Positions 5,664 through 28,474 are shown, numbered from the stretch's first letter. The stretch is 40,013 bases of DNA from an uncultured Candidatus Saccharibacteria bacterium (GCA_964592945.1 CAZQGK010000001.1:9224-49236), one strand, 5' to 3'. Program-made: numbers and translations. The notes: generated from the sequence alone by a model not told the origin.

Positions 5664-5667
5664 TGCC

Positions 5668-6372: not shown

Positions 6373-6381
6373 GAGGACGTA

Positions 6382-6843: not shown

Positions 6844-6864
6844 ACAAATTTCTTTATCGCTGCA

Positions 6865-7107: not shown

Positions 7108-7157
7108 GTTGTCAATTGTATACGTTAGAACTACCCTGTACAACCTGGCTGGGGATA

Positions 7158-7658
7158 CTAGAGGCACCCGTCAATCTTCCGTATGCGTCTTTGATGGCGT
7201 TCTTCACCCGAAAATGGCCTCTCGAGCCATTCTTTGAGAGCTTCTCTTGCCTCTTCAATCGAGAGGAACCGGGCGCCGAGCGAGAGCGCGTTGGCGTCGT
7301 TGTGTTCGCGGGTCGAGGCGAGCATGCTGAGTTGACGCCCGGAGAGGTCGGTCTGCTCGCGGCCTGGCTTTCCATAATAGAGCGCGCAACGTACGCCTTT
7401 AAAACGATTTGCGACCATGGCCTCTCCCTGACCGGAAGCGCCTATCACGACGGCACGGCTATTGCGCTCTTGCACCGCATCCGCGGAGAGCTTTCGCGCC
7501 GCGCCTGCGATAATTTCCGGATAGTCATCGCTCGGGTCATTGACGAATGCACCGCAGTCTTCGACATCGTATTTCAATTCATCACGCACGTAGGCAAGAA
7601 GGATGTTTTTCAATTCGAATCCCGCGTGGTCGGTGGCAAAATAGACACGCATGGTCAT
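7158..7658 (-). CDS. rpiB: Ribose-5-phosphate isomerase B
   Basis: MTMRVYFATDHAGFELKN... is the RpiB/LacAB N-terminus. The start at 7658 gives an ATGA overlap with the gap stop; the track's longer start (7730) lies inside gap. Confidence 0.85.
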   Translation of the reverse strand: MTMRVYFATDHAGFELKNILLAYVRDELKYDVEDCGAFVNDPSDDYPEIIAGAARKLSADAVQERNSRAVVIGASGQGEAMVANRFKGVRCALYYGKPGREQTDLSGRQLSMLASTREHNDANALSLGARFLSIEEAREALKEWLERPFSGEERHQRRIRKIDGCL

Positions 7659-10081: not shown

Positions 10082-10088
10082 GCCGATG

Positions 10089-10137: not shown

Positions 10138-11541
10138 TCATTTCAGGATGACATCGCGTTCCGAACACGGATGATACCACCGCCACACTGCCCCGAGGAC
10201 ACAGAAGACAAGCGGCACCGAGAACGCGACGATTGCGCCGAGCGGCGGGTTGTGCTCCACGAAGGTGAAGTACGGACCCGCGATGGCGCCGCCGACAACC
10301 CCGATGAGAACCACCCACGGAGATACCGCCCTTGGCCACAACAAGACGACGAAGATTGCAACGATTTGCTCACCCCTTACGATGCTCATGTTTTGAAGAA
10401 GTACTGCGATGTCGTTGACACGCAACGCCATCACAAATCCTCCGATGAGAGTGATGAACATGAATGCACGGCTCCACGCTATCGTTTCTTCTTCGCTCGA
10501 ACCTAAACCAAACCGCTTTACGATTTCTGTTCCCCATACCGTTCCGGCGCTCGCGAGCTGCGAAGCCAGAGAGGAAATGAGCACGACCGTTACGATCAGA
10601 ATCACTAAGGGTTCTGCGGCCGGCAGAAATTTGACGATCTCAAGCGCCGGCAGCTGGTCCTTCATCAAACCCATTCCAAGCATCCGTGCCAAGAAACCAA
10701 GCGAACCGTAGGCAACCAGGATAATCGAGAAGAGTACGACCGACACAGTGCCGGAGAGCACGAGACGGCTCTTTTCGATCGCATAGTTTCGTTCAACCAT
10801 CTCCGGTTTTGATATGGCACCGCCTATCAAAGACACCGCGAACGGGACGCCGAACACCCAGAACACATTCATCGGCGAAAGGTCCGGAAGCGGGATCGCG
10901 AAATCAAACGGCGCAACGGGAAAGATCCACAACAGGGCGATACCCGCTGCACCCAGGAATATGAAGAAGATCTTTCCGATATCTCCTATCATTGTTCCCC
11001 GCATACCGTGCGGCGTTGCCCACAGATACGCAATAACCCCGGCGAGGATGGAAAGTGTAAGCATGCTTACACCAAGATGCTCGCCAATCCACAGACGGAG
11101 TGTCTCCTGATTGGCCGCCTGCAGCATCGTCAGGTTGAGCGCCATCGTGTATGCGAGACTGATGATGGCGAAGATGGCGAAGACGGTGCGTAGCAACCCT
11201 CCCGAAACGCCCCGGGACACGTGCCCGAAGACCTCCGGGAGCGTGTACCCGTCTCCCTTTGCATTGTGCAGAGCCGGGCCGATTATCATCGTGAGAGCGA
11301 GGGCGAACACGTTCGGGACCGCAAAGGCGAGAAAGTGCCAAGGGCTTAGGAAGGCAAACGTGCCGCTCGCAAACAACGCAAGCGGCTGGGTCCAGTCTGC
11401 CGTGTAGGCAAAAGACCCGCGCAGCCAACCAAGATTCCTGTTGTGCACGAAGAAAGACTCGAGAGTCCGCGCAGCACGCGGGGCCACGAGCACGAGGGCC
11501 GTGAGGATGGTCAGCGTCCCTATGATCATAGATGTGGTCAT
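10138..11541 (-). CDS. Polytopic membrane permease, sodium:solute symporter (SSS)-like
   Basis: About 467 aa from ATG 11541, with AAGGAA 6 nt upstream. It is hydrophobic throughout, with roughly 12-13 predicted helices. The N-terminal LESFFVHNRNLGW...TADWT resembles the SSS family start (FFxxxRxLG). The family call is tentative. Confidence 0.5.
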   Translation of the reverse strand: MTTSMIIGTLTILTALVLVAPRAARTLESFFVHNRNLGWLRGSFAYTADWTQPLALFASGTFAFLSPWHFLAFAVPNVFALALTMIIGPALHNAKGDGYTLPEVFGHVSRGVSGGLLRTVFAIFAIISLAYTMALNLTMLQAANQETLRLWIGEHLGVSMLTLSILAGVIAYLWATPHGMRGTMIGDIGKIFFIFLGAAGIALLWIFPVAPFDFAIPLPDLSPMNVFWVFGVPFAVSLIGGAISKPEMVERNYAIEKSRLVLSGTVSVVLFSIILVAYGSLGFLARMLGMGLMKDQLPALEIVKFLPAAEPLVILIVTVVLISSLASQLASAGTVWGTEIVKRFGLGSSEEETIAWSRAFMFITLIGGFVMALRVNDIAVLLQNMSIVRGEQIVAIFVVLLWPRAVSPWVVLIGVVGGAIAGPYFTFVEHNPPLGAIVAFSVPLVFCVLGAVWRWYHPCSERDVILK

Positions 11542-11641: not shown

Positions 11642-12751
11642 TTACTGGGAAATCAGCCGGATCTTGATATCTTTGTTTTCTTGCGTGAAAGGTCCCGCTG
11701 TTTGTACAATTTCAAGCGGTAAAAAGACACCTTTTTGTACGAGTTCAAACAAAGTCTGCGTCGGTGTGAGGAACAACTCACGCGAGAACTTATTCTTCGT
11801 TTCCTCCAGAAGCGCATCCGTCATCGTAGCGCCGCGACGGTACAGTCTCAGGGTAATTTGGCCTTTGGGCGAGCCGCCAGACTGGACCTCGCGGGCTTCC
11901 ACACGATAGTCGTCGACATACGGGAACAATCCAACAACGCGGTCGAACTCCTCACGCCGCAAGGTGGCTCCGGCGAGCTTTACATAATCACGGCCTGTGC
12001 GTCCGACAAGCTCAAATGTAACCGGCGCACCACACCGGCATTGCGGCAAAAACCGCGCAACATCTCCTACGCGGTACTGTCTAATATGTTCATCCTCTAT
12101 CGTAGTACTTATGTACACTTCCCCCGCCCCGCTCTCGTCAGGACCGACGATGTCGATCGTGACACCCTCTCCGGGATGATACTGGTTGCGCCTAAGGTAG
12201 CGGCAATTATCGAGTGATGACAGTCCTCCGAGTTCGCTCGTTACATAGAGCATGCGTACTGCGGCATCCGGCGTCTTTTCCGCAAATACACGCGCACGAT
12301 AGGCGGTAAGCATTTCGCCGGTAAGGAAGACATTTTTTATTCTTAGCCGTGCGGCGGTAGAAAGAGTCTCCAGTACTGCGGTGATAAACGATGGTACCCC
12401 GCGGAATGTATCCGGAGCAAAATCATCGAGAAGCATCCCTACCTCGGGTACCAGATCTCTGATATCGGTCGCCATGACTCGTATCGGCGCATTGCCCTCG
12501 CAGTAGCGCACTGAGAATACATTCGTAAGACGCGTGCTCATCGTGCCCATACAGGCGACCGGCCGTACCGAGTTTTTGAATATACTGAAAAGACGCGGCC
12601 GAGATAGTGTCGCGATGACCAGCGGCCAATCCCCCGTCGTTCCGGAGGTCGTGCGCACTATATATTGCCGCGCTTCCTCTGGCTTGAGATTAGCCGAGCG
12701 TAGTCGCGCGAGCGACCGTTCTCCAATTTCTATCAGATCAGCACGTTCCAT
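11642..12751 (-). CDS. Short PaaK/F390-synthetase-like adenylate-forming ligase A1
   Basis: 369 aa with RTTSGTTGDWP (P-loop), YRVGDVARF, CRCGAPVTFELVGRTGRDYVKLAG and a C-terminal NKDIKIR lysine. It lacks the N-terminal FY..LY segment present in A5 and A6. Confidence 0.8.
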   Translation of the reverse strand: MERADLIEIGERSLARLRSANLKPEEARQYIVRTTSGTTGDWPLVIATLSRPRLFSIFKNSVRPVACMGTMSTRLTNVFSVRYCEGNAPIRVMATDIRDLVPEVGMLLDDFAPDTFRGVPSFITAVLETLSTAARLRIKNVFLTGEMLTAYRARVFAEKTPDAAVRMLYVTSELGGLSSLDNCRYLRRNQYHPGEGVTIDIVGPDESGAGEVYISTTIEDEHIRQYRVGDVARFLPQCRCGAPVTFELVGRTGRDYVKLAGATLRREEFDRVVGLFPYVDDYRVEAREVQSGGSPKGQITLRLYRRGATMTDALLEETKNKFSRELFLTPTQTLFELVQKGVFLPLEIVQTAGPFTQENKDIKIRLISQ

Positions 12752-12753: not shown

Positions 12754-13491
12754 TTAAATTAAAACCGTGTCCGCCGGTATCCCCGTCCGGTACTTTACGA
12801 TCGGCGTCACAAGCTGCGCCAGCTTCGTGACGACAAGTTCGCCGTTATTGTTTTCAAGGACGCAATTCGAAAGCGGCCTCATAATAGGCTCCGAAAGTGT
12901 CGCCTCAGCTATCGCCCCCGTCTCCGGAAGAGCGAGAACGCAGCGTACGGTCCGCGCATATGGTGAGTATTGCGTGAGCGAGTTTCTATCAAATGCGGCG
13001 CCGACAAGCGTGATTGCTTCAAGTTGTTCGCTACGGCCGTCAAGGTACGGCCGTAGCCGCTCAAGAGCAGCAACATCCGTGATGAGCTGATCGACCTGAT
13101 ACCTAGATGCCGCATACGATGCTATGTCCGCGTCCTTTTCGCCTATCAGCGGCACCATGCCTCTGTCATAGCACCACATCGACTTCTCAAGCGCCTCATG
13201 CGGATCCGTCATATAGACCATCGGCCGCTTTGACTTCACTCCCCACGGCTCCCGCGCGATGTCCTCAAAACTCCATTCGGAAAGGAACGGCCCACCGGAA
13301 TTGTGCACGATCTTCACGAACGCCCGCTCGTCTTTGTAACGGCGCTGTGACAAAGGGGCGTGTATGAAGTCCGCCCGCGACACGTGCGGCAAGTTGGGAA
13401 GCCCCTTCGCACGGCCCCAGTGCCCGCTATAAAAAGACGAGGGGGCCCTCCGTACCCAAGTGATAAGTTCTTCTATCTGCTCGTCCGACAT
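12754..13491 (-). CDS. B-family protein B1: N-domain-only ligase paralogue with no P-loop
   Basis: 245 aa with a PaaK-like N-terminus (SFYSGHWG...LPHVSRADF). The P-loop position is degenerate (VHNSGGPF), and GELVVTKL...KYRTG is retained. The stop lies 2 nt before the A1 start. Confidence 0.75.
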   Translation of the reverse strand: MSDEQIEELITWVRRAPSSFYSGHWGRAKGLPNLPHVSRADFIHAPLSQRRYKDERAFVKIVHNSGGPFLSEWSFEDIAREPWGVKSKRPMVYMTDPHEALEKSMWCYDRGMVPLIGEKDADIASYAASRYQVDQLITDVAALERLRPYLDGRSEQLEAITLVGAAFDRNSLTQYSPYARTVRCVLALPETGAIAEATLSEPIMRPLSNCVLENNNGELVVTKLAQLVTPIVKYRTGIPADTVLI

Positions 13492-13611: not shown

Positions 13612-13917
13612 ATGACCGAACCGTTGCCTGGTACGTCGCCGGCTGAATGCCAAGTATCCATCGGGGAACTCGGCATGGAAATGCTGTGGAGCCTGGTGAG
13701 AGCGGTGTGCGTCACCGTCATTCTGATCGGCCTATCGTGTGGTCCGGTCATTGCGATGGCGCAATTCGGCTTGGTCGGCCCGGGTACCCACCCGGGAACA
13801 CTGACGCTGGCATTCGCTCTTGTCATGACAGCAGTCGGAACACTGACCGGTGCGATAACATGTATCGCACTTATCGGCTCCCGGGTCCGGCTTACCGCGA
13901 ACGATATCGCGATGTGA
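13612..13917 (+). CDS. Hypothetical small two-TM membrane protein
   Basis: ATG 13612 is preceded by GGAAGGGAGGACGGAG. It has two hydrophobic helices (AVCVTVILIGLSCGPVIAMA and LAFALVMTAVGTLTGAITCIALIG). A good terminator follows. I recognise no family. Confidence 0.45.
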   Translation: MTEPLPGTSPAECQVSIGELGMEMLWSLVRAVCVTVILIGLSCGPVIAMAQFGLVGPGTHPGTLTLAFALVMTAVGTLTGAITCIALIGSRVRLTANDIAM

Positions 13918-14126: not shown

Positions 14127-15068
14127 ATGCGCTTTATTCGAATGATGCTCACTTACGCGTTCGCGTGCATTGTCTCAGGTCCGGCACTCGGGGAAACCTT
14201 TCCCAGCCGGGCCATTACGGTCATCGTCCCCACTACGCCGGGGTCCGGGACCGATATCGGCACGCGGCTCATCGCCGACCATATGTCCAAGACCCTGGGT
14301 CAGCCAGTGGTTATTGAGAACGTGGGCGGTGCCATCGGGATTGTCGGGACGAGGCGCTGTGCAGACGCGACGGCGGACGGCTATACGATCTGCGCCACCA
14401 ACTACGGCCAGATCGTTCTCGCGCCCTTCGACTACAAGGCACGGGGCGAGAAACTGGGCTACGAAGTGTCGTCGCTTAGGCCGGTGGCACGAACACTGCT
14501 GTTCGATTTCGTGCTCGTCGCGCACAAGAATGTGGGCGCCACGCTTCCCGAAGTGCTCGCGTACGCGCGCGCACACAACGGGCTTACCGTCGGTAACGGC
14601 GGTACGACCGGTGAGTACGCCACAAAACTACTGCGTGGCCTGCAAGCCACAAAAGTGGTTTTCGTGCCGTACCGCGGCGACCCGCTTGCAATGGCGGACG
14701 TCCTCAACGGAAGCATCAACGCCGCCTTCATGACGGCCACTGTCGCACTGCCGCACCTCAAGAGCGACATAGTGCGCGTGGTCGGCACAGTGGGAAGGAA
14801 AAAAAGCGCCCTTCTGCAGACCGTCCCCACCCTGTACGAACAAGGGTGCCTGGCCTGCGGAGACCTCGACTCATGGGGCGGTATGTTTGCCCCGAATGGC
14901 GTGCCGGAGGACAGGATGCGTATCCTGAGCCGGGCGGTTCTTGCGGCGCTCCATGACCCGGGCGTCATCGAGAAGCTGGAAAAGGCCAAGCTTACGGCAT
15001 ATCCAGCAGCCCCCGACGTGTTCGCGAACGTCATCAAGCACAACATCGCGGAGGCTCAGAAACGTTGA
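14127..15068 (+). CDS. Bug/TctC-family periplasmic solute-binding protein (TctC-1), orphan
   Basis: 313 aa with a signal peptide, then FPSRAITVIVPTTPGSGTDIGTRLIA and ...VENVGGAIG..., which are Bug-family N-terminal hallmarks. SD GGGAGAGGGAG lies upstream. Confidence 0.85.
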   Translation: MRFIRMMLTYAFACIVSGPALGETFPSRAITVIVPTTPGSGTDIGTRLIADHMSKTLGQPVVIENVGGAIGIVGTRRCADATADGYTICATNYGQIVLAPFDYKARGEKLGYEVSSLRPVARTLLFDFVLVAHKNVGATLPEVLAYARAHNGLTVGNGGTTGEYATKLLRGLQATKVVFVPYRGDPLAMADVLNGSINAAFMTATVALPHLKSDIVRVVGTVGRKKSALLQTVPTLYEQGCLACGDLDSWGGMFAPNGVPEDRMRILSRAVLAALHDPGVIEKLEKAKLTAYPAAPDVFANVIKHNIAEAQKR

Positions 15069-15083: not shown

Positions 15084-15116
15084 CCGGCGGCACGCGAGTG
15101 TCGCCGGAACATTTTT
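15084..15116 (+). terminator. Rho-independent terminator of TctC-1
   Basis: 10-bp stem (ccggcggcac / gtgtcgccgg, one G-U pair), GCGA tetraloop, then aacaTTTTT. Confidence 0.65.
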
Positions 15117-15145: not shown

Positions 15146-16561
15146 CTATTTACACTCGGTCGGATACACAGGGAGGCATCCTGTTGTTACCGGCGCCGAG
15201 AGCGTGCTGTGGAGGTCGTTCTCGACATGTTCCCGGAGCTTGTCTTTCAGAGTGGTTGCCTTCGCGACCTCTTTCGTGATGAGGTTTTCTTTTTCGCGCG
15301 GGTCGGTATTCAAGTTGTAGAGTTCTTCTTTGCCGTTTTCCAACGTAATGATGTATTTCCAACCATCCGCAGTGCGCACGCCGCGCTTGTGCGTGAAGTC
15401 GCGATAATCCGTCTCGATGAATACATCCCTGCCGGCGGTGGCAGCTCCCGTGATGTACGGCAAGAGACTTTTGCCTTCAAGCTGTCCGGCGAACGTGCCC
15501 GACGCCATTCCGAGCATCTGCACGAGTGTCGGTGCGACGTCCATCATGCTTACCTGCGCGGAAATTTTCACTCCTCCGCGCGTGCCGGGGATGCTCACTA
15601 TGACGGGCACATGCACGAGCTCGTCGTACAGCGTATGCCCGTGGTCGATGCCGCCGTGTTCATGCCACTCTTCGCCATGGTCGGATAGGACCACGATGAC
15701 CGTATTTTTGAGGAGTCCCCGCCCGTCCAGTGCGGCGATAAAATCCCCCACCCCGGCATCAGCCGCACGGATTTTGCTGTCGTAAAGGCCGTTCCAAAAC
15801 GCGACATCGGCGGGGGTAAGCGAGAGCGGGGAAACGAGTTGGTCCTCGCGGAGTTTTGCTTCCTCCTGCGGCGAGCCCGTGTACGGACCCTTGTAATCTT
15901 TCGGGACGAAAGACTCCGAACTGGTGGCGAGCTTGAACTGACCGTGGAGGTCATAGCCGTGGAAGAACATGAAAAACTTTTGATTCTTCGGAAGTGTGTC
16001 GAGCCACGCAAGCGCGTGCGTCTCGCTGTTGCCCAAGCCGCCGAATGTTTCCGCGTCGGTATAGATATCAAATCCCAGTCCGTAGCCGAACGCGTGCCCA
16101 ACACCCGCGTCTCCCGTAAACCCGCCGGTTACATATCCTGCGGCCTTCATCGCCTGCGCCAGCGTTTCTATCTGCGGCGAGAGTGCGCGCAGATCAGATA
16201 ATATTTGCTTCTTCGGGTCCTTCGGATCGTACTCGACATACTTGTTCGTCACCTTGTGCACGGAAGGGTAGGCGCCCGTCATGACGGACATGAACGCGGG
16301 CACCGTCCAGCTCGAGGCGGATATGGCGTTCACAAAGCTGTATCCCCCCGCCGCCAAGGCGTCGATGTGGGGAGTGGTCTCACGCGGGTACCCGAACGAA
16401 TGCACGCGGTCGGCACGCAATGTGTCTATACCGATGATGATGACGTTGCAGTCTTTGCACGATATGTCCGAAGACGTAGGCGAGCCTTTTCCGGACACAG
16501 CGAGACCGAGTGTGATGACGACAATGAATAAAACCGCCCCGAACAGCGCGCGCGTAACCAT
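15146..16561 (-). CDS. Membrane-anchored sulfatase-fold (alkaline-phosphatase superfamily) ectoenzyme AP-1
   Basis: 471 aa with an N-terminal TM helix, then NVIIIGIDTLRADRV...TPHIDAL and DHGEEWHEHGGIDHG. SSWTVPAF occupies the position of the sulfatase CxPxR motif. Confidence 0.8.
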   Translation of the reverse strand: MVTRALFGAVLFIVVITLGLAVSGKGSPTSSDISCKDCNVIIIGIDTLRADRVHSFGYPRETTPHIDALAAGGYSFVNAISASSWTVPAFMSVMTGAYPSVHKVTNKYVEYDPKDPKKQILSDLRALSPQIETLAQAMKAAGYVTGGFTGDAGVGHAFGYGLGFDIYTDAETFGGLGNSETHALAWLDTLPKNQKFFMFFHGYDLHGQFKLATSSESFVPKDYKGPYTGSPQEEAKLREDQLVSPLSLTPADVAFWNGLYDSKIRAADAGVGDFIAALDGRGLLKNTVIVVLSDHGEEWHEHGGIDHGHTLYDELVHVPVIVSIPGTRGGVKISAQVSMMDVAPTLVQMLGMASGTFAGQLEGKSLLPYITGAATAGRDVFIETDYRDFTHKRGVRTADGWKYIITLENGKEELYNLNTDPREKENLITKEVAKATTLKDKLREHVENDLHSTLSAPVTTGCLPVYPTECK

Positions 16562-16577
16562 AGTGCCCGGGAGTATA

Positions 16578-18164
16578 TCAAAAATATGGCTGGATTTCCT
16601 GCACGGGAGTCGGACCGGGAGTCGCCCCTCTCATTTTTACTTCCCAGTCTTCGAGCTTTGCGCGTAGCGCGACGATATCCGCATCATGCGCATGCGCGCT
16701 GTATATATTGCGTGTCTCGCCCGGATCGTTCGCGAGATCGTAGAGTTCGTACTCGGGCAACACGACAGGCTTTCCTGTGAGCCACCCCCACCAGGAATAT
16801 TTCAGGAGGGCCGTGCGCGCGAGACGATGAATGAGTTTCCATTTCTCTGTGCGTATCGCGGTGTCGTAGTAATGTTCCTTATTGTCGGCGGTTACAAATT
16901 GCGCCCACGCGGTCGATTCGATAGGCATGGATGATGGAAGAAAGATTGCCCTGCCCTGGAACGTAGACGAGAAAAGGCGCTCCCATAAGGGCGTGCGTGA
17001 CAGATACACCTCCCGCCGCGGCTGTGTCGAGGTTGCCCCCGTGAAGAAAGGCGACAGGTCGACACCGTCCACGACAGGTGCCGGTATACGCAGGAGCGAG
17101 AGCACGGTCGGCAGTACATCAACTCCGGAGGTCAGCGTCTCGATACGCCGCCCCGCGAGGGCCGGCATTTTGATGATGAGCGGCGTGTGGACCGTCTCGT
17201 CATAGATATCATAGTGCGCAATGTAGCCGCGCTCGCCCAAGGTCTCGCCGTGTTCCGACTGCAAAATGACAACTGTCCGGTCGGCAAGTCCAGTTTTTTT
17301 TATATAGTCGAAGAGTTCACCGACGATGCGGTCGGTGAGCACTAATCCGTCATCATAGCGCCCGTTCACATAGTCGATGTCTTCCTTCCCCACCGACCCC
17401 ACGGAGCGCACAGGCGTCGTTGTCGAGTAGAGGACGCCCCGGTATGCGAATCCGAGGTTGTCGCGCCACGTCATGCCTGTCCTTTTTACATCGTCAGTGT
17501 TGAGAAAACCGTCATAGGCGGGGTCGGAGAAGTGATTCGGTTCGTCCTGCCCATAGGGCCAATGCGCCGAGCCGATAGCGACCCACAAGAAGAACTGTTC
17601 GCGGTTGTGCCCGTCTATCCAAGCGATCGCGTCGGCAACCGGATTACCTCCGTGCTGATAGTATTTTGTATCTGATGCCGACGAGAGCACATACGTGTCA
17701 AATCCGCGCGTGAAGCCGGCTTTAAGGGCCGGATAATTGTAGAACTCCGGCGAGGATAAGAACGCCGCCGTCTGCATACCGTTGCTTTTAAAAATCTGCG
17801 CCATCGTGGGTACACTGTCGCGCAACACAGACTGAAAATTAATAACTCCGCTAGTGAATGGGTAGTTCCCGGTATGCACACTCATCTCACTAATAGGAGT
17901 GAGGAAACTCGTAGAAAAGTTATTACCGAAAACAATTCCATCCTTGGCCCACGCATCAATGTTGGGTGTGGTATCGCGTCCGTACCCGAAAAGGCCCATG
18001 TGGTCGGCGCGCACGCTGTCGACACTGATGAGAACCACATTCAGTTTGTCCGGCCGCAAAACGGCGGGCCGGTTTTTGTTTCCTATCAATAACGCGGCGG
18101 CCACCAGTACCACCGCCAGCGCCAGCGCCACTCCAAGTCGTCGCATGACCGAAGTATAGTACAT
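16578..18164 (-). CDS. Membrane-anchored sulfatase-fold (alkaline-phosphatase superfamily) ectoenzyme AP-2
   Basis: The start is set at ATG 18164 (MYYTSVMRRLGVALALAVVLVAAALL), 7 nt after the B2 stop. The track's 609-aa start overlaps B2. Motifs are NVVLISVDSVRADHM...TPNIDAW and SEHGETLGERGYIAH. SFLTPIS replaces CxPxR. Confidence 0.8.
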   Translation of the reverse strand: MYYTSVMRRLGVALALAVVLVAAALLIGNKNRPAVLRPDKLNVVLISVDSVRADHMGLFGYGRDTTPNIDAWAKDGIVFGNNFSTSFLTPISEMSVHTGNYPFTSGVINFQSVLRDSVPTMAQIFKSNGMQTAAFLSSPEFYNYPALKAGFTRGFDTYVLSSASDTKYYQHGGNPVADAIAWIDGHNREQFFLWVAIGSAHWPYGQDEPNHFSDPAYDGFLNTDDVKRTGMTWRDNLGFAYRGVLYSTTTPVRSVGSVGKEDIDYVNGRYDDGLVLTDRIVGELFDYIKKTGLADRTVVILQSEHGETLGERGYIAHYDIYDETVHTPLIIKMPALAGRRIETLTSGVDVLPTVLSLLRIPAPVVDGVDLSPFFTGATSTQPRREVYLSRTPLWERLFSSTFQGRAIFLPSSMPIESTAWAQFVTADNKEHYYDTAIRTEKWKLIHRLARTALLKYSWWGWLTGKPVVLPEYELYDLANDPGETRNIYSAHAHDADIVALRAKLEDWEVKMRGATPGPTPVQEIQPYF

Positions 18165-18171
18165 CCGCCTT

Positions 18172-18921
18172 TCAAACAGTGTCCGCCAAGTCGCCGGTGT
18201 AATATTTAATAATGGGGGTGGTGAGCGGCCTGTCTTTCGTGACCGTAAATCCTTCCTTGGTAGCGACCAGGAGGCAACCGGGAACAGGGATAAAAACAGG
18301 TTCGAGTGCGAACTCGGCTTCGGCAAATGCGCCGACCGCGGCTGCGGCGCGTACCAAGCGCATCCGACGCGCGTACGCGGTGAACGGCTGTAGTGTTCGT
18401 GTGTCAAAAGTCTCTCCTATGACCGTTATCGCCTCGAGCATTTCCTCCCGCTCCGCAAGGTATGGTGCGAGCTTTGTGAGCGCCCGTTCATCGGTGATGA
18501 GCGAATCGACGTTATACTTTCGAGCCGCAAAGGCGGCAATGTCGGGATCGGCCTCGCCGACGAGAGGGACCATGCCGTTCTCGTAACACCACACCGACTT
18601 CTCGAGTGCCTCATGAGAGTTCTCCATGTACACCAGCGGCCGCTTTGAGATGACGCCGAACGGTTCACGCGCAATATCCTCAAAGGCCCACTCGGAAAGA
18701 AACGATCCGTTCGCAGTATGAATAATCTTTACGAGAGAGATGTCGTCTTTGTATCTGCGTGTGGGAAGCGGAGCGCGCACGAAGTCGTCAATGGTAACAA
18801 GCGGCAACTCGTCGAAGGTGCGCTTGCCTCCCCATAGTTCCCGGTAAAAGGAAGCCTGAGGGTGGCTGGCAACAGCAGCGATGAGCCGCTCTATCTTATT
18901 GTTATCACGTAATTCAGGCAT
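18172..18921 (-). CDS. B-family protein B2: ligase paralogue with no P-loop
   Basis: 249 aa, alignable along its length with B1 and B3 (SFYRELWG, RRYKDD, FLSEWAFEDIAREPFG, HEALEKSVWCYENGMVPL, KYYTGD). The P-loop position reads IHTANGSF. Confidence 0.75.
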   Translation of the reverse strand: MPELRDNNKIERLIAAVASHPQASFYRELWGGKRTFDELPLVTIDDFVRAPLPTRRYKDDISLVKIIHTANGSFLSEWAFEDIAREPFGVISKRPLVYMENSHEALEKSVWCYENGMVPLVGEADPDIAAFAARKYNVDSLITDERALTKLAPYLAEREEMLEAITVIGETFDTRTLQPFTAYARRMRLVRAAAAVGAFAEAEFALEPVFIPVPGCLLVATKEGFTVTKDRPLTTPIIKYYTGDLADTV

Positions 18922-18923
18922 AG

Positions 18924-20039
18924 TTACGTGCGTTGCATAACCTTTACCTCTTTGAATTTGGCGGGAAAGGGTTCGGACACGAACTCGACAACGAGCGGGA
19001 GGAAGTTCTTTTCCGATACAAGTTCCCCGAGTGTCCGCGTAGGAGTGAGAAACAGGTTTTGGGATACCAATTCGGCGATGTGTGCACCTAATTGCGGATC
19101 TGAAACTCCATCGGCGCGGAACACGCGTAGCACGATCTTCCCCGTGATGCGGCCGTCAACTAATTCTTCCGAGGCCTCGGCACGATAGTCGTCGGCCATT
19201 CCCGGCTCCAGTGAAAGTACCCTGTCGAATTCCTCGCGTCGCAAAATCGTCCCGGCAATTTTCAAGTAGTCGAACCCACGCCTGCCGACAATTTCAAAAG
19301 TAATCGCCTCACCGCACGGGCAGGGACCGCACATACGCACAATATCGCCGGTGCGATATCTTTCTATCGTAACTCCCTGCGGTAAATGTCTCGTCACCAG
19401 GAGGTCGCCGTACCCGTGCTCGTCCGGCTCGCGTATTTCTATCGTTACGTCCTTGGCGGGATGGTACTGGTTCAGAGGAGTGTGCCCGCACGACGGCAAC
19501 GACACGGGCAAAAACAATTCCGTCACATTGTACATAGTCCGGATGCGGGCAAAAGGGAAACTCTCGCGCAGTAATTTTACCCGTGGTTCGGTCATCACCT
19601 CGCCTGCGACATCCATAGTACTCACTCCGCGTCGAACATCCTCAGGAACGTTCGACGAGAGCTTGATGGCGAACGATATGAGCCCGCGTATATGGTCGGG
19701 TGCGAATTCACTGAGCAGACGGGGAAGCTCCGGAGTGAAATCGTCGTAATCCAGGGCAAGCGATGCAGATCTGTTGCACGCAGGGTTGCTCCTCATTATA
19801 ACGAGATACCTCAAACGTATGCTTCGCGTACCGACACAGGTAAGACGCCGTCTTGAGTCGCCCACCCAATCCGGCGCAAGACGCCCGGCCGCAACGGCCA
19901 GCATGAGCCCCTTACCTGTGCTTCCGGAGGTCGTACACAAGCAATACGCATACACGTCTTTGTGCCCTTCACGTATCACTTCAGCAAGAAGAGGATCGCA
20001 TATGACCCGCGGCGCGTCTTTACGCTCTAATATCTCCAT
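18924..20039 (-). CDS. Short PaaK/F390-synthetase-like adenylate-forming ligase A2
   Basis: 371 aa with CTTSGSTGKG (P-loop), YRTGDIVRM, CPCGEAITFEIVGRRGFDYLKIAG and a C-terminal KFKEVKV. The start lies 6 nt after the C1 stop. Confidence 0.8.
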   Translation of the reverse strand: MEILERKDAPRVICDPLLAEVIREGHKDVYAYCLCTTSGSTGKGLMLAVAAGRLAPDWVGDSRRRLTCVGTRSIRLRYLVIMRSNPACNRSASLALDYDDFTPELPRLLSEFAPDHIRGLISFAIKLSSNVPEDVRRGVSTMDVAGEVMTEPRVKLLRESFPFARIRTMYNVTELFLPVSLPSCGHTPLNQYHPAKDVTIEIREPDEHGYGDLLVTRHLPQGVTIERYRTGDIVRMCGPCPCGEAITFEIVGRRGFDYLKIAGTILRREEFDRVLSLEPGMADDYRAEASEELVDGRITGKIVLRVFRADGVSDPQLGAHIAELVSQNLFLTPTRTLGELVSEKNFLPLVVEFVSEPFPAKFKEVKVMQRT

Positions 20040-20045
20040 AGCGCC

Positions 20046-20270
20046 CTACTCCAAAAAACCTCCGCAACTAACAAAGAGTATCTTATTCGGATTTTGTTTC
20101 GGCGCTTGTTGCACGCCGCTATCGGGCGAGCACTCATTGTCCGAAGCAAGTTTCGGCGTATTGTTGTGAGCGAAAAATTGCTGTACGTATATATATGTGT
20201 ACAAGAGCGCGGCAAACACGAAGGCCGCAGCGACGATGACCATTTGGCGGATAGTGATGCGCTCTCGCAT
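20046..20270 (-). CDS. Tail peptide C1: 74-aa N-terminally membrane-anchored peptide ending ...NPNKILFVSCGGFLE
   Basis: It has a basic N-terminus (MRERITIRQ) and a TM helix (MVIVAAAFVFAALLYTYIYV). The C-terminal SCGGF is shared with three other small ORFs but encoded by different codons. TACAAT lies 6 nt upstream of the ATG. Confidence 0.75.
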   Translation of the reverse strand: MRERITIRQMVIVAAAFVFAALLYTYIYVQQFFAHNNTPKLASDNECSPDSGVQQAPKQNPNKILFVSCGGFLE

Positions 20271-20276
20271 AATTTC

Positions 20277-20282
20277 ATTGTA
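20277..20282 (-). promoter_or_regulatory. -10 box (TACAAT) 6 nt from the C1 ATG; TTGCCC lies 16 nt further upstream
   Basis: The reverse strand reads TTGCCC-16 nt-TACAAT-gaaatt-ATG, with no SD. The spacer contains the 20288..20303 inverted repeat. Confidence 0.4.
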
Positions 20283-20324
20283 GCGCGTGCCCGTACGCGG
20301 GCAAGCCGCGGCTATATTACCGCC

Positions 20325-22031
20325 ATGTTACAATGGGGCACCATGTGTTTTTCTCCGAAGGAGCTTCCGAGCGGAGCCGTTTTGGGAGGATGTCTACTGG
20401 CCGTTCTTGCTCTTGCTCTGCTGGGAGTGTTCATATTCCGGGAGTGGACGACCTCTTTCTTCAGCTCCGCATTGCAACAAGCTAACGTCATCGAAACCGT
20501 AAGCGTACAAGGGGGCACCTACCATGTCGATCGCGGCTTCGTCTCAACATCAGATGCCGTTCCGGTCCAACCCGCACGAAAGATCGGGGCGCTCCGCCTT
20601 GCATACGCACTTACGCTTGCGAAGCGTTCGCCTCTCATCGCCCTTGCGGGAACGGATGCGGACAAACTGGATACGGCAACCACGCAATTGGAGGCGGTGC
20701 AGAATGCATTGGCCGATTTACAGAGCGAAGAAAACGACAAGAGACTGATCCGGAATACGCTCTTTCCCATACGTTGGCTCCGGGCGCTTGCGGATACCGA
20801 ACGGGCCCGGCAGGCATTTCTCACGAACAGTTCCGATCAAAATGAGACGAGGTATCGTGCGGCGCTTGAAGCTGCCGCCGTGGCTTTTGAGAGCGATTTG
20901 AGCCGGTACCGTGCGGCATTTGCGCAGACTGCGATTCCTTCCCAACGGATTGCCGTGATGAGCGGGATCGAAACCACGGAGAGCATTCTGCATGCGATAG
21001 ATGAGGCCGGGGCAGGCATGCAGGCAACGGGGTCGCGTCTGCGCAATCGAGAACGTTGCCTTTCGGGTCTCTTTTGGTTTTGTGGTGAGCGGGATCTCGC
21101 CATTCCTGCACTGGACGAACCACGCGACGTGCGATCGGGTGCGGCATCTCGCCTTCCCGCGGACGTGAACGATATGCTCGATCTATACGCCGCGGTCTTT
21201 GGGTTACCGGCGCTGAAGAACCGGACGGTATTTGCCATCAGTGACGATTCTTGTATCGAACCGAGACCGCTACCGCATTATTTCGTGATACCTCCGGACA
21301 ATGGAGCTGGTGTCCCCGACCTAGTACCCCCGATGCTATTTGTGGGAGACACGACTATTAACCGCATTGTAGAGCCGTCTGCGAATTGGAGAACGTTTAA
21401 TCAATATCTTTTGGATCTTGGCGTGAAATATACGCCGGGGAATCCGATCAGCTATTATCAATGTCCTGAGCTAAGAGGTCTTCAGGGGCATATCTTCGGT
21501 ATCGACGCCGTGTTCGAGGAAATACAAAAGGATCCGTCGTGGGCGAAACGCTTCGGTCATGTTTCCGTGGCCGGCACGCGCGTGATATCAGATGGTGACA
21601 TCACCGCATTCCTTGCCTCGACGACGCGCGCCGCGTCCGGGAACGGATCACCGTCGTCCGAGCGCGATCTTCTGACCGAGTTATCACTCATGGTCAAGAA
21701 TCGAAGTGCGGCGCTTGATCGGCTGGTCGCAGCAATTGCAACCATAGATCGTACAATTCCCGGACTGAAACAGTACGGCATTCACGAGGGATTTGACGCG
21801 AACTACCTTCTGATCGCTAAAAGCGGTTTTCCACAACTTTTTGAGACCCAAAATCCGTCGGTCGTCGGCACTACATCAATCTCAGTATTTGTCGGTAAGG
21901 GCTCTCCTCGTCCTTCGAACTCGCTGTGGTATTCACAATTGCCGGAGGAAGAAAAAATCACGGCCATGTCCGACTTGAAGGTGTGGGTCCGGCTGCATCG
22001 AGAATTCCTTAAGTCCGGCGTTGCTCCGTGA
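20325..22031 (+). CDS. D-family protein D1: membrane-anchored, uncharacterised, four conserved Cys
   Basis: The start is set at ATG 20325, with TATATT 6 nt upstream. The track start 20094 overlaps the divergent C1 gene. It has a TM helix (AVLGGCLLAVLALALLGVFIF) and blocks shared with D2 and D3: ALRLAYA..A.RSPL.AL.GTD, C-x2-G-x4-C and Y.C.E. Confidence 0.7.
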   Translation: MLQWGTMCFSPKELPSGAVLGGCLLAVLALALLGVFIFREWTTSFFSSALQQANVIETVSVQGGTYHVDRGFVSTSDAVPVQPARKIGALRLAYALTLAKRSPLIALAGTDADKLDTATTQLEAVQNALADLQSEENDKRLIRNTLFPIRWLRALADTERARQAFLTNSSDQNETRYRAALEAAAVAFESDLSRYRAAFAQTAIPSQRIAVMSGIETTESILHAIDEAGAGMQATGSRLRNRERCLSGLFWFCGERDLAIPALDEPRDVRSGAASRLPADVNDMLDLYAAVFGLPALKNRTVFAISDDSCIEPRPLPHYFVIPPDNGAGVPDLVPPMLFVGDTTINRIVEPSANWRTFNQYLLDLGVKYTPGNPISYYQCPELRGLQGHIFGIDAVFEEIQKDPSWAKRFGHVSVAGTRVISDGDITAFLASTTRAASGNGSPSSERDLLTELSLMVKNRSAALDRLVAAIATIDRTIPGLKQYGIHEGFDANYLLIAKSGFPQLFETQNPSVVGTTSISVFVGKGSPRPSNSLWYSQLPEEEKITAMSDLKVWVRLHREFLKSGVAP

Positions 22032-22047: not shown

Positions 22048-22425
22048 TCACACAGGAAATTCGCGTCTCTCAACCTCGCGAACCCTCTCCGGCTTAAAGT
22101 ACTTCTTAGCCAGCACAAAAAAACGCTCCGCTTTGGCGTCGTTATTTTCTGAATAATGACAATAAAACAGACGGATATGTGCGGTGCCGGCTTCGGGCCA
22201 TGTGTGTATGTCAACGCTGGATTCTCCAATTATCACAGAGACCGTCACTCCGCCTGCACCCTCAAACTTTTTACTCGCGACCGGCTCATATACCGTAAAG
22301 CCGGCCTTGCGCACGAGTCCTGCAAACGCAGCGCCTAGATCTGCATCGGTCAGTGCTGCGACATTCGCACAGTCCTGAAAAATCCAGCCGCGATCGATGC
22401 TTATGGTATCGTTCATGGTCCGCAA
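22048..22425 (-). CDS. speH: S-adenosylmethionine decarboxylase proenzyme (small, pyruvoyl-dependent type)
   Basis: 125 aa with VIIGESSVDIHTWPE, which is the self-cleavage Glu-Ser site and the HTWPE motif. Confidence 0.85.
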   Translation of the reverse strand: MRTMNDTISIDRGWIFQDCANVAALTDADLGAAFAGLVRKAGFTVYEPVASKKFEGAGGVTVSVIIGESSVDIHTWPEAGTAHIRLFYCHYSENNDAKAERFFVLAKKYFKPERVREVERREFPV

Positions 22426-22428
22426 ATC

Positions 22429-24093
22429 TTACGGAGTACTAATGATGCTCGGTAATCCGCGTTCGTATTCTAACTGTCGGACCGCATTAAATCTATACTG
22501 TGGCTGAAGGAATTGAGAAACAGCGGGATTGCGGTCAGTGGATATGATGTCCTTATGAGTGTCAAAATACCGGCGCTCAAACGGCGGCATGTGGAACAGT
22601 CCGGCATGCCTGGAGGATTCGTACCAATGATCCCCCTCAACAACTTTCTTCCTGCGAACGACGCGCGGATCGTATGCATCACTTGCAATGACCGATGCTT
22701 GGATTGCATCTGTCGTGCTACGTATTCCTCCCGCATATTCATACCGGTAGGTATATTTGAACACAGATCGTATGGTGGCTAAAATTACCGTCTGCGCCTC
22801 CAGATACTGGTTATTTGGTATGTGCGGGACAAGTATTCCGCCGGGAGAGAGGCGTGTCTTAGCAAGTTCATAAAACTCCTTCGACCACATACTGCTAAGC
22901 TGTGCCCTGCGCGGAGCAGGCACGTCGACGATTATTATGTCGAACTGTTGGTCGGTTTGTTGAAGGAACGTACGCCCATCCATGAAATGGCGTTCAATAC
23001 GTGGGTCATCAAAAACGCCGCCATTCATCTTTTGCAGATATTTTCGCGAAAGATTCACAAGCTTCTCGTCTATGTCCACATGCACAATGTGCGGGATGCC
23101 GGCGCGAACCAGTTGATACAGCGCTCCCCCGTCACCTCCACCGATGACCAATACTCGTTGCGCATCCGGATGTGCATTCACGGCCGGGAGGACGGAAAAT
23201 TCATGGTATGCGCGCGAAACCGTTCCTACGAATAACGTATCATCGAAATACAGGGAGATCCCGAAGGTGGGGTGGTCTATTATGGCGCTGTATTGAAATG
23301 GGGAGTGCGCGGCCTCGATCGGATTATAACGTGTTGCTAAACGAAAGAACGAGAGACTCGCTTCGGTAAAATACTTCTGAGAGCCGAAAAGAAGCGTACT
23401 TCCTCCAATTAATACCGCGATAGAAAGCACTATCCCGAATAGCTTTTTCTTCTCAACAAGGGAAAAAATGAGGAATACCGTGGCCGCATTTAGAATACCG
23501 CCTGCAATCATTGTCCCTTCGAGTCCAAGGAGCGGAATGAAGAAAATGCCTGCAGTTAACGCTCCGAGTACACCACCTAGGGTGTCCCCGGCATACACAA
23601 CACCGACATGCGTCCCGGAATGGGTCTCGCCTCGCTCCAACCATTGAACGGCCACCGGCAACTCGATACCCATGAGAAACGAGGGAAAAAGCAACGCCCA
23701 TGAAATGAACAGCGACTTCATCGCGAAAGTGGAAGAGTATATCCCGAGTGCCTCGGCAAGCGCAAAAAAAGAAAAGCCGTATAGCGCTATAAGCGCCTCG
23801 GCAACAACAAACAACAGAAGGAGGGGGTACTTGCGTCGCGTATACCAGGCGCCGGCAAATGCACCGAGCCCCAATCCTCCCATGAACCCTCCGATGACCA
23901 TGCCGGCGGAAAATTCAGTAATACCGACGAGGGTGGTTACAAATGAAAGCAACACCACTTCGTACATAATGCTCGCCATCCCGGTAGCAAAGAGGATAAG
24001 AAATAACAATGTGAGCGCGGTCGAATAGCCGACGTACGTGCCTGCATATGAACGAATCAACTGCAACATAATGGTCCGGATATTAATGTGCAT
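22429..24093 (-). CDS. speE: Polytopic membrane domain fused to a spermidine/polyamine synthase domain
   Basis: 554 aa. The N-terminal ~220 aa are multi-TM. The C-terminal part has VLVIGGGDGGALYQLV, VDIDEKLV and DIIIVDVPAP (aminopropyltransferase fold). The start at 24093 overlaps the E2 stop by 11 nt; ATG 24069 is an alternative. Confidence 0.8.
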   Translation of the reverse strand: MHINIRTIMLQLIRSYAGTYVGYSTALTLLFLILFATGMASIMYEVVLLSFVTTLVGITEFSAGMVIGGFMGGLGLGAFAGAWYTRRKYPLLLLFVVAEALIALYGFSFFALAEALGIYSSTFAMKSLFISWALLFPSFLMGIELPVAVQWLERGETHSGTHVGVVYAGDTLGGVLGALTAGIFFIPLLGLEGTMIAGGILNAATVFLIFSLVEKKKLFGIVLSIAVLIGGSTLLFGSQKYFTEASLSFFRLATRYNPIEAAHSPFQYSAIIDHPTFGISLYFDDTLFVGTVSRAYHEFSVLPAVNAHPDAQRVLVIGGGDGGALYQLVRAGIPHIVHVDIDEKLVNLSRKYLQKMNGGVFDDPRIERHFMDGRTFLQQTDQQFDIIIVDVPAPRRAQLSSMWSKEFYELAKTRLSPGGILVPHIPNNQYLEAQTVILATIRSVFKYTYRYEYAGGIRSTTDAIQASVIASDAYDPRVVRRKKVVEGDHWYESSRHAGLFHMPPFERRYFDTHKDIISTDRNPAVSQFLQPQYRFNAVRQLEYERGLPSIISTP

Positions 24094-25441
24094 AGGATTC
24101 TGTATGGCCCGCAGCCTTCCGGGCCTCTTCGCGAATACGGCCGCTTTGCATGATGAGCTCCAACTGTTCCGCGGTAGTATCTTCGAGTATCGCGTCCGCC
24201 GATCGATATAGTATGCCTTCCGGCTTTACCCTGCCGGAACCGAGGAAATTGGGCTTTTCAGCAATCCTCCACACGCTCTCATTAAACGGTAGATAGTAGA
24301 TGCTCGGATGAGTGCGCATGAGAACCCAGTACCATGCAAGGTGGGACGTGAACGTACCGTGCCGCATATGATCTTTCGCGTTCTCAAGGACGGTCTGGTG
24401 GTCCTCTACGCATGCTCCGAGAAGCAGATCGATCAGGCTCGATTTTTGCGCCCGCAGTGCTTGCGCGTCGAGCGACGGCCTGCGATGGATATCAACGATC
24501 GTCGAAACATCCGCCCAATATGTCTGATCGCGCATCGTATAAAAGTTTGTTGACGGCTGATACCAATATGGTATCCCCTTGCCTCTGAGATGCGCCAGTG
24601 AGCTCAGTTTTGTTGTATCAGGACCGATTTTCTGGAAGAGAAATAGATCAAGCGCAGAGATTTTGAGGCTCACGGTGCCGCTCCGATCATCGCGCACGAT
24701 ATAGAGCATGAACGGGTGTGTGGTCGGCGTACCGTCAAACTGTGATAGTTCGTATGCAAAAGGTCCGTGCTTCTCGAGGATGGTGCTGCGTCGAAATGGT
24801 AAGGAATGAGTGAGCTCGAGTTCGTGAAGGTGGGCGTAGCGTGCGGGGGCAGTACACTGCCGGTATTTCAGATCTGTTTCCGCAGTAGTTGGCTTTGGGA
24901 TCCGGGAACATTCCTTCCCCGCGGCAATCTCTTGGCGTGCTATAAGCTCGACACGCAGCCGATCTGCATTCGCACGAAGCGTCCGTAACGTGTGGTTAAT
25001 ATCCGAAAGAGTACTCGTGTTGCCATGCATATCCTGCAGCGGAGCCGCTTCTGCATTCTTGCGGTCAAGGCTGAGAAGTATGCGGTGCATCCGCGTGAAG
25101 CGCGCGACATCGGCACCATACGCGCTGCACGTAACATCCCATGCTTCAAGCAGATCACGCTGTGAGCGCCCGGTCGGGTTCGCGAGAAAGTGCCGGCGGC
25201 AGCGCTCGCTCTCGATGAACGCCCGAATGAACGACAGGGGAATGGCGTACCGCGTAAGCGGGTACCGCGTAAGGAACAAGCGTCGCATGAGCGAATGACC
25301 GCCGACTGCCTCCTCGAATTCACGGGCGACCGACTGAATGGCATCAAGCGCCGTCTCGGCGCGCTCAAGGTCCATGCCCACAGCGGCAAAGAGAGGGTCG
25401 TTTCGCACCAGATCAACAAATGTTTCCGTAACGCCTTTCAT
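24083..25441 (-). CDS. E-family protein E2 (paralogue of E1)
   Basis: The start is set at ATG 25441 (MKGVTETFVDLVRNDPLFAAVG), which aligns with the E1 N-terminus. TATACT lies 6 nt upstream. The track start 25465 adds 8 aa. It is collinear with E1 to the C-terminus (TTAEQLELIMQSGRIREEAR versus TTPEEMDLIMQGGRIRKEAR). Confidence 0.7.
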   Translation of the reverse strand: MKGVTETFVDLVRNDPLFAAVGMDLERAETALDAIQSVAREFEEAVGGHSLMRRLFLTRYPLTRYAIPLSFIRAFIESERCRRHFLANPTGRSQRDLLEAWDVTCSAYGADVARFTRMHRILLSLDRKNAEAAPLQDMHGNTSTLSDINHTLRTLRANADRLRVELIARQEIAAGKECSRIPKPTTAETDLKYRQCTAPARYAHLHELELTHSLPFRRSTILEKHGPFAYELSQFDGTPTTHPFMLYIVRDDRSGTVSLKISALDLFLFQKIGPDTTKLSSLAHLRGKGIPYWYQPSTNFYTMRDQTYWADVSTIVDIHRRPSLDAQALRAQKSSLIDLLLGACVEDHQTVLENAKDHMRHGTFTSHLAWYWVLMRTHPSIYYLPFNESVWRIAEKPNFLGSGRVKPEGILYRSADAILEDTTAEQLELIMQSGRIREEARKAAGHTESYAH

Positions 25442-28470: not shown

Positions 28471-28474
28471 GGAG

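Follow-up and report, generated by a model that had tools for sequence, protein, structure and literature searches.

Among described systems, the Dlt pathway is one of the closest to a membrane microprotein encoded directly before an adenylating enzyme: DltX has a conserved FxYxxF motif whose invariant Tyr carries D-alanine, and it acts with the MBOAT protein DltB, the carrier protein DltC, and the SGNH protein DltD (PMC12148441). A second comparison is with LuxE; independently of coenzyme A (CoA), this PaaK-related enzyme transfers an acyl group from acyl-AMP to the thiol of a Cys near its own C terminus, in a short flexible motif, after which the acylated tail swings to a partner enzyme (PMC9157457). 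Here, we analyzed the five-gene unit C1-A2-B2-AP2-AP1 in a 40,013-nt stretch of DNA from an uncultured Candidatus Saccharibacteria bacterium (GCA_964592945.1 CAZQGK010000001.1:9224-49236; referred to below as the window). A sequence-only reading had described this unit as five minus-strand genes separated by 6, 2, 7, and 16 nt, which the open reading frame (ORF) list matched exactly, and had likened it to the dltX-dltA layout. Our comparisons indicate instead that C1-A2-B2 is one module of an undescribed system, specific to the Patescibacteria (candidate phyla radiation [CPR]) and built around a microprotein with a Cys-Gly-Gly tail; the five-gene unit is its visible corner. The same comparisons indicate that the system is not Dlt, although the layout resembles it. 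Much of bacterial diversity belongs to the Patescibacteria, the majority of whose genes lack a known function. No account of this system was found in the literature on CPR bacteria with PaaK, F390 synthetase, or TctC, and an anti-phage defense system was rejected, as PADLOC returned zero matches for ten core proteins.

C1 had no match in Pfam or NCBIfam. For the C family, a profile search over 5.8 billion proteins recovered only 17 relatives, all unannotated, and a scan of 185,579 species genomes yielded 13 related loci (designated by L numbers), every one from Patescibacteria; the system recurs in Kaiserbacteria, Parcubacteria, Nomurabacteria, Giovannonibacteria, and related bins. In the AlphaFold2 (AF2) model, C1 consists of an N-terminal helix (residues 2 to 37) and a disordered tail (residues 38 to 74), with the ending ...LFVSCGGFLE (NPNKILFVSCGGFLE). 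The window encodes four peptides with such an ...SCGGF.. ending (Table 1). Tail statistics were computed over 36 distinct tails, all from Patescibacteria. Cys-Gly-Gly was kept in 36/36, 2 to 3 residues from the C terminus; the residue preceding the Cys was Ser in 35 tails and Thr in one; and, counting that Ser/Thr as −1, position −3 was Phe in 34. The resulting consensus, phi-F-phi-[S/T]-C-G-G-phi-phi(-D/E), contains no conserved Tyr. Where a conserved tail "Cys or Ser" had been proposed, the Cys was invariant, which speaks against its being dispensable in orthologues, and the Ser was replaced by Thr in one tail. Tails fell into two types: type I tails stop three residues past CGG (...NPNKxLF[IV]SCGGF[LI][DE]; Cys sixth from the end, at −6), and type II tails stop two residues past it (...CGG[FIL][FY]; Cys at −5). 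A second Cys lies ~20 residues upstream of the tail Cys in 33/36 sequences, and the three members without it retain the tail Cys.

The 24 genomic copies of a 7-residue motif are encoded by 24 different nucleotide strings, which between them use every Gly and Cys codon and both families of Ser codons. Because the copies differ in nucleotide string, selection acts on the encoded protein, and these data indicate that C1 is a genuine coding gene whose motif is conserved far beyond chance. Topology was assessed for C1 and X (see below) by simple flank charge counts. In C1, the charges were +3/−1 in the N-flank and +1/−1 in the C-flank; the family mean was ~2 K/R in a short, acid-free N-flank versus ~2 K/R plus ~1 D/E in the next 15 residues. 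This check on C1 topology favored an N-in/C-out arrangement, only weakly, and the conserved second Cys (33/36) hints at the same placement of the tail outside. A lipobox reading of L-F-I-S-C-G-G was set aside: the residues fit, but they lie ~40 residues past the hydrophobic segment, at the extreme C terminus. No fusion protein carrying the tail ("Rosetta stone") was found in 204 fetched proteins or among the ORFs of the related loci. One Giovannonibacteria peptide (L014:9899-10069) keeps the tail, ...NPNAKLFISCGGFIE, with no clear hydrophobic N-terminal segment.

A2 had been called an adenylate-forming ligase, and this assignment was borne out. No Pfam match was obtained at E ≤ 0.01, and NCBIfam matches were all PaaK-like and weak (16 to 23 bits versus cutoffs of 300 to 700); these scores fall below threshold, and the homology is visible only by family profile. 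Against the PDB, the A family profile matched the PaaK-type structure 4r1l at E 1.5e-16, with 4r1l and 9s3l both at ~1e-16. A2 retains an intact TSGSTG P-loop, YxxxE, YRTGD, GRxxD, and the C-terminal Lys. In the alignment of the A family (14 sequences, as for the B family), T37, S38, G39, E174, Y228, G231, D232, G252, D257, and K363 were invariant, and the ANL core motifs A3 (P-loop, T/S-S-G-T/S-T/S-G), A5 (YxxxE), A7 (Y-x-x-G-D), A8 (G-R-x-x-D-x-x-K), and A10 (Lys) were all conserved, suggesting that A2 is probably an active PaaK-type adenylating enzyme. Like PaaK enzymes, A keeps the P-loop, A5, A7, A8, A10, and the CxCG motif. Unlike them, it lacks the PaaK N-terminal microdomain, which sits on the partner B, is obligately paired with this catalytically dead half-ligase, and scores below the Pfam and NCBIfam thresholds. 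B2 retains the PaaK N-terminal FYRxxWG motif. The B family is homologous to the N-domain of A only (hhalign, 96.9%); its members have no P-loop, stop right after the ...Y-R-T position, and have no C-terminal domain, in agreement with the earlier description of B2 as a pseudo-ligase partner. A second pair is formed by E, a full PaaK-like ligase that retains every ANL motif, and D, which has no P-loop and is weakly related to B (hhalign, 88%). Within the window, the catalytically dead B paralogues (53 to 60% identity) are better conserved than the active A ligases (37 to 41%).

The comparison with dltX-dltA held for the layout: C1 is a single-pass membrane microprotein with a conserved motif at its extreme C terminus, its gene directly precedes that of an adenylating enzyme, and its tail is probably at the outer face. 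Membership in the Dlt pathway did not hold. C1 does not read as a DltX, its [S/T]-C-G-G tail having neither FxYxxF nor a conserved Tyr in the 36 tails. Nor does A2 read as a DltA: matches of the family profile to DltA chains were confined to a single short motif region and had E values of 4e-4 to 2e-2, versus 1.5e-16 for PaaK. In agreement with the sequence-only reading, neither an MBOAT protein nor a phosphopantetheine (Ppant) carrier was found among the window proteins scanned against Pfam; no SGNH (DltD-like) protein was found among them either, and the precomputed Pfam lists of L001 to L004 contained no PP-binding or SGNH family. The partners here are instead a half-ligase, X/Y proteins of novel fold, carboxylate-binding proteins, and a permease of the sodium:solute symporter (SSS) family. 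The last of these (Perm) is the only polytopic protein of the system, and its possible identity as a hidden MBOAT, analogous to DltB, was ruled out because its homologues carry the SSS domain PF00474.

AP1 and AP2 had been described as two membrane-anchored sulfatase-fold ectoenzymes of the same operon. This assignment was supported: both match Pfam Sulfatase PF00884 (E 5.3e-39 and 3.9e-40, respectively), both have one N-terminal hydrophobic anchor, and both have Thr at the nucleophile position, as LtaS and EptA do. Where the formylglycine signature C/S-x-P-x-R is expected, AP1 reads T-V-P-A-F (alignment to 7stt) and AP2 reads T-P-I-S-E (alignment to sulfatase 7p24). Because Thr replaces the formylglycine Cys/Ser, these alignments suggest that AP1 and AP2 are phosphoester-type enzymes with a Thr nucleophile, not sulfatases. 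They share with LtaS and EptA the PF00884 fold, the extracytoplasmic location, and the Thr nucleophile position. In place of the five-helix membrane domain of those enzymes, AP1 and AP2 have one N-terminal anchor each; true sulfatases match them best, C-terminal subdomain included, and their scores to the NCBIfam LtaS and EptA models were 17 to 36 bits versus cutoffs of 500 to 970. As conserved partners of the other genes, the two proteins fared poorly. AP homologues were present in 1/13 related loci, 9 kb from the peptide, and missing from the other 12. In a metagenome scan with AP2, the AP2-AP1 tandem recurred at L020 (848-2889, 48% identity) and L022 with no ligases near, and its upstream neighbors were unrelated genes (one for a Pro/Glu-rich protein at L020; Sua5-like and TruB-like genes at L021). 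AP2-AP1 was therefore rejected as a core part. The distribution indicates a separate two-gene unit that is joined to the C1-A2-B2 transcript in this genome only, and a conserved functional tie to C, A, and B is not supported. The tandem itself is a conserved two-gene unit on related metagenomic contigs.

We therefore consider it very unlikely that the system works as a Dlt-like pathway, in which C1 and A2 would correspond to DltX and DltA and an acyl group would pass to an envelope polymer outside, with AP1 and AP2 as LtaS/EptA-like enzymes. The similar layout, the probably external tail, the Thr nucleophile of AP1 and AP2, and the probable transcription of the five genes as one unit favor this idea; however, every defining feature of Dlt that was tested is absent, the AP genes are lacking from 12/13 related loci and their tandem occurs independently, and no route was found for the acyl group across the membrane.

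The system occupies ~30 kb of the 40-kb window, in at least five paralogous modules (Table 1). From 8.7 to 18 kb, the order is Y1, Perm, A1, B1, TctC, AP1, AP2; it continues with B2, A2, C1, X1, SpeD, SpeE, Y2, TctC, A4, B3, A3 and, to 38.5 kb, with TctC, C, X2, TctC, D1, E1, C, D2, E2, C. Partner linkage was determined by BLAST of all ORFs of the 13 related loci against the window families. Type I peptides adjoin an A/B pair, in either order, in ~15/17 cases, and type II peptides follow directly after D and then E in every context inspected, one extra tail in L010 aside. The tail subtype thus tracks the ligase subtype strictly (...F[LI][DE] with A/B; ...[FIL][FY] with D/E). C is usually the first gene of its unit. 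Ligases and peptides are not matched one to one: four A ligases accompany two type I peptides in the window, and the B1-A1 module has no C gene.

Two further kinds of protein recur with these modules; like D and E, they did not figure in the sequence-only reading. X proteins (~550 amino acids) have an N-terminal anchor and four conserved Cys residues, and their genes diverge from those of type I peptides and immediately follow those of type II peptides; the N-flank net charge and the four X-specific Cys residues suggest that the X domain is probably outside. Y proteins (~450 amino acids) lack both the anchor and these Cys residues but are homologous to X (hhalign, 99.2%). At E ≤ 1e-3, the family accounts for 837 of 1.84 billion cluster representatives. 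Neither X nor Y, nor any of ten sampled family members, had a Pfam match, and X and Y had none in NCBIfam. The AF2 model of Y2 was of high confidence (predicted local distance difference test score, 90; predicted template modeling score, 0.91), yet Foldseek found no fold match to it (best E, 0.9 in the PDB and 0.03 in BFVD). In the PDB profile search, the only hit for the X/Y profile, 5iww (a pentatricopeptide repeat protein; E 1.3e-05), was weak and partial, with no domain passing alone, and was dismissed as spurious. Residues conserved in both X and Y (Y2 numbering) are E79, D137, H242, Y301, Y308, S334, S335, N387, and S389; such shared residues hint at an enzyme.

The second kind of recurring partner is concerned with carboxylates. 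The window encodes four TctC-family (PF03401) binding proteins, 23 to 34% identical to one another, whose genes are mostly nested on the opposite strand inside ligase modules; DctP-family binding proteins take the same position in L010 (1656-2708) and L012 (8594-9658). No TctA/TctB or DctQM membrane partners were found near the binding-protein genes. In the tripartite tricarboxylate transporters, TctC works with TctA/TctB; here, TctC is present four times without them, and the associated permease is the SSS-family Perm, some of whose homologues are named cation/acetate symporters and which recurs in related loci.

Given these components, our leading, if tentative, proposal is that the ligases adenylate scavenged organic acids and charge the tail Cys with them, by analogy with the loading of LuxE on its own tail. 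Secreted TctC/DctP-type binding proteins and the SSS symporter would take up organic acids. In the cytoplasm, A (or E) with the half-ligase B (or D) would make the acyl-adenylate, and the acyl group would move to the invariant Cys thiol of the flexible [S/T]-C-G-G tail. The microprotein would then be an acyl acceptor that needs no pantetheine and is provided in trans, and the constant tail may be held by B or D. A protein of 74 amino acids has to enter the membrane after its translation is complete, which would allow loading of the tail in the cytoplasm before crossing, and the loaded tail would then be carried outward with the C-terminal half of the microprotein. Outside, the membrane-anchored X would use the acyl-peptide; inside, its cytoplasmic paralogue Y would do so. 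The acid substrates, the Cys thioester, the tail-outside topology, and the roles of X and Y are parts of this scheme that we infer.

Several observations are consistent with such a carrier. Cys-Gly-Gly is invariant, has small neighbors (Ser or Thr at −1), and keeps a fixed spacing to the C terminus; the peptide genes are linked to those of PaaK-type ligases, A and E, with intact catalytic motifs. The tail is predicted to be disordered, as would suit a swinging arm. Binding proteins specialized for carboxylates (TctC/DctP) are nested in the modules, and the permease related to acetate symporters recurs. The A ligases (37 to 41%) and TctC proteins (23 to 34%) diverge, whereas the B proteins (53 to 60%) and the tails, which are near-identical, do not; this pattern, as well as the excess of ligases (four A) over type I peptides (two), fits an arrangement of many acids and one acceptor. 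The likeness to LuxE is at most one of mechanism: the LuxE Cys tail (TRxxKGCxLS) lies within the enzyme, whereas here the Cys tail is on a separate membrane-anchored microprotein, and LuxE lacks the ANL C-terminal subdomain that A2 keeps. A further parallel is the SiaP (tripartite ATP-independent periplasmic transporter) pathway, in which sialic acid is scavenged, activated, and displayed. As in that pathway, the gene of a carboxylate-specific binding protein of the DctP or TctC family is coupled to that of an activating enzyme in the cytoplasm; unlike in that pathway, the permease is of the SSS family instead of DctQM/TctAB, and activation would be ANL adenylation instead of nucleotidyl transfer to a sugar. 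If the tail were an acyl acceptor, or a self-activated thioester as considered below, the system would represent pantetheine-free carrier chemistry, and it might give tiny, auxotrophic cells attached to a host a means of capturing and using the organic acids of that host.

Other considerations weigh against acyl loading. ANL ligases normally use the thiol of CoA or Ppant. The charges weakly favor a C-out topology, in keeping with the hint from the second Cys (33/36). Once outside, a tail is beyond the reach of a cytoplasmic ligase and cannot be charged again, so that each carrier would serve only once, and importing an acid just for re-export is roundabout. The hand-off to X or Y is pure conjecture, given that the X/Y fold has no match. 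Finally, the fixed distance from the Cys to the C terminus and the pairing of tail and ligase subtypes suit activation of the peptide's own C terminus at least as well. In that alternative, which resembles the pathways of ribosomally synthesized and post-translationally modified peptides (RiPPs) and which we regard as unlikely, the ligase would adenylate the C-terminal carboxylate of the peptide or the side chain of the type I terminal Glu/Asp, and the Cys 4 to 5 residues upstream would attack to form a thiolactone ring, like that of a staphylococcal autoinducing peptide (AIP) but driven by ATP. As a variant, an outside amine would be attached, the modified tail being displayed or released outside.

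Self-activation best explains the fixed Cys position (−5 in type II, −6 in type I) and the strict covariation of tail and ligase subtypes, and Gly-Gly would ease ring closure. The C-terminal Phe/Tyr also resembles the aryl-acid substrates of PaaK enzymes, and RiPP clusters typically have an operon that begins with the precursor and holds several copies of it. However, we know of no ANL enzyme that adenylates a peptide C terminus. Four divergent A ligases for two near-identical type I tails, and a B1-A1 module without a C gene, are not what this alternative predicts; unlike a pheromone, the tail does not vary between distant CPR lineages, and the carboxylate-binding proteins and permease would be left over. 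The same mixture appears in the comparison with AIPs of the AgrD/AgrB type. Shared features are a small precursor, an N-terminal membrane-associating segment, a Cys 4 residues before the eventual C terminus, and a potential 5-residue ring (type II, CGGFF). In contrast, no AgrB-like protease is present here, closure would be driven by ATP through an ANL ligase, and the tail is invariant rather than hypervariable. Less probable again, in our estimate, is that the ligase pairs install an intramolecular thioester (Cys to the C-terminal carboxylate or to Glu/Asp) and so give a pre-activated, reactive tail at the surface. Such a tail might act as a warhead or hand-off group, for instance in covalent attachment to a host cell or in passing the anchored peptide on to a nucleophile of the envelope or the host, and the enzyme that uses the tail outside would be X. 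If so, an ultra-small episymbiont would have a new way to move ATP-derived chemical energy across its membrane.

The transport components allow another account, doubtful but only slightly less probable than the carrier proposal, in which the system serves uptake and metabolic trapping. The ligases would convert imported acids to CoA thioesters or to amides, and C would be a partner rather than a substrate: C and X, as membrane subunits, would tether or regulate the outside part, for instance as a docking site that brings the secreted binding proteins to the permease, and the tail Cys would be structural, for example as the disulfide partner of X or of the upstream Cys. The TctC, DctP, and SSS components embedded in the modules favor this account, as do the probable location of both the C tail and X outside, the four conserved Cys residues that X has and Y lacks, the upstream Cys of C in 33/36 sequences, and the fact that X adjoins C as consistently as the ligases do. 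Yet three members keep the tail Cys without an upstream Cys, absolute C-G-G invariance at a fixed distance from the end would be unusual for a pure tether, C shares its transcript with the cytoplasmic ligases rather than the binding proteins, and the account does not explain why tail type and ligase type are paired. Whichever mechanism holds, the system is defined and testable, with short peptides, soluble enzymes, and clear mass-spectrometric readouts.

Transcription of the five-gene unit could be outlined from the window itself. A promoter-like site precedes C1, its −10 box stopping 6 nt ahead of the C1 ATG, and the sole strong hairpin, likely the end of the transcription unit, follows AP1 (Table 1). 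With a promoter-like site ahead of C1 and the only strong hairpin after AP1, the five genes are likely cotranscribed in this genome. Given the 6-nt distance, the C1 mRNA is probably leaderless. The same arrangement extends to other C genes: a −10 box, often TGnTAnnnT, lies 6 to 8 nt before the start of most of them (21 loci), and all four window C genes (e.g., 20271-20304) and those of L001 to L012 have a −10 box close to the start and no Shine-Dalgarno sequence. This suggests that a leaderless mRNA is a conserved feature of C genes. The A2 Shine-Dalgarno sequence overlaps the final C1 codons.

The position of C as usually the first gene, together with the A2 Shine-Dalgarno sequence within the last codons of C1, would suit a cis-acting arrest or leader peptide of the MifM/SecM type, in which a C-terminal arrest motif controls downstream genes. 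The architecture and spacing, with a membrane segment ~45 residues before a C-terminal motif, are MifM/SecM-like. We nevertheless give this possibility almost no weight. A convergent TctC gene parts C from A/B in the second module of the window, in L009, and in L012; in L013, C comes after the ligases; no structure sequestering the Shine-Dalgarno sequence was predicted (fold z = −0.14); and the downstream genes do not encode membrane-biogenesis factors. As a principal explanation, it was ruled out by the intervening convergent genes and the absent Shine-Dalgarno hairpin.

Table 1. Features of the C-tail system and adjoining elements in the window (positions counted from the first nucleotide of the stretch)
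Feature	Position	Strand	Description
Y1	8681-10084	-	Cytoplasmic X/Y-family protein
Perm	10138-11529	-	Divergent sodium:solute symporter (SSS)
A1	11642-12751	-	Ligase paralogue
B1	12754-13491	-	Half-ligase paralogue
Bug1	14127-15068	+	TctC-family carboxylate-binding protein, signal peptide, PF03401 (E 6.9e-38)
Hairpin	15084-15107		GC-rich; between convergent AP1 and Bug1
AP1	15146-16561	-	471 aa; membrane-anchored sulfatase-fold ectoenzyme
AP2	16578-18164	-	528 aa from ATG at 18164; membrane-anchored sulfatase-fold ectoenzyme
B2	18172-18921	-	249 aa; half-ligase
A2	18924-20039	-	371 aa; PaaK-type adenylate-forming ligase
C1	20046-20270	-	74 aa (ORF list); type I microprotein
Promoter-like site	20277-20304	-	TTGCCC-16-TACAAT, sigma-70-like; upstream of C1
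X1	20325-22031	+	Membrane-anchored X/Y family; divergent from C1
Y2	24083-25441	-	Cytoplasmic X/Y-family protein
Bug2	25543-26535	+	TctC-family binding protein
A3-B3-A4 module	26606-29626	-	Ligases and half-ligase, as follows
A4	26606-27724	-	
B3	27721-28470	-	
A3	28475-29626	-	
Bug3	29810-30799	+	TctC-like binding protein, nested between a C gene and its ligases
Second type I microprotein	30859-31077	-	Ends ...NPNKMLFISCGGFIE
X2	31133-32797	+	Membrane-anchored X/Y family; divergent from second type I microprotein
Bug4	32909-33883	+	TctC-like binding protein
Type II modules D1-E1-C and D2-E2-C	33969-38536	+	Two modules, as follows
D1	33969-34700	+	
E1	34700-35962	+	
Type II peptide after E1	36021-36272	+	Ends ...IYYVSCGGFF
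D2	36256-37002	+	
E2	36999-38252	+	
Type II peptide after E2	38300-38536	+	Ends ...VFFVSCGGFF

Additional genes were noted in and around the system. In the window (22048-25441, minus strand) and at L018 and L019, Y2 is followed by a spermidine-synthase-like gene and then an S-adenosylmethionine decarboxylase gene at spacings of 13 to 14 nt, and the three look like one operon; the spermidine-synthase-like domain is fused to a large N-terminal membrane domain. A polyamine link as part of the core was ruled out, SpeE and SpeD being absent from the 13 related loci. Between B1 and Bug1 lies a candidate small hydrophobic ORF of ~100 amino acids (13612-13917, plus strand) with no family match. In relatives, another membrane-anchored family occurs near the system (21 ORFs at 9 loci, e.g., L001:8021-9133, L002:3141-4697, and L007:8796-9905); it has no Pfam match and was absent from the window by tblastn. 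Just outside the system is a type IV pilin-like gene with the N-terminal methylation motif PF07963 (6382-6843, minus strand). A housekeeping block encoding glyceraldehyde-3-phosphate dehydrogenase, RpiB, a split transketolase, and ribulose-phosphate epimerase adjoins the system in the window (3384-8674) and in L005, L010, L012, and L013; since the same block is found beside it in several genomes, the chromosomal position of the system appears to be conserved.

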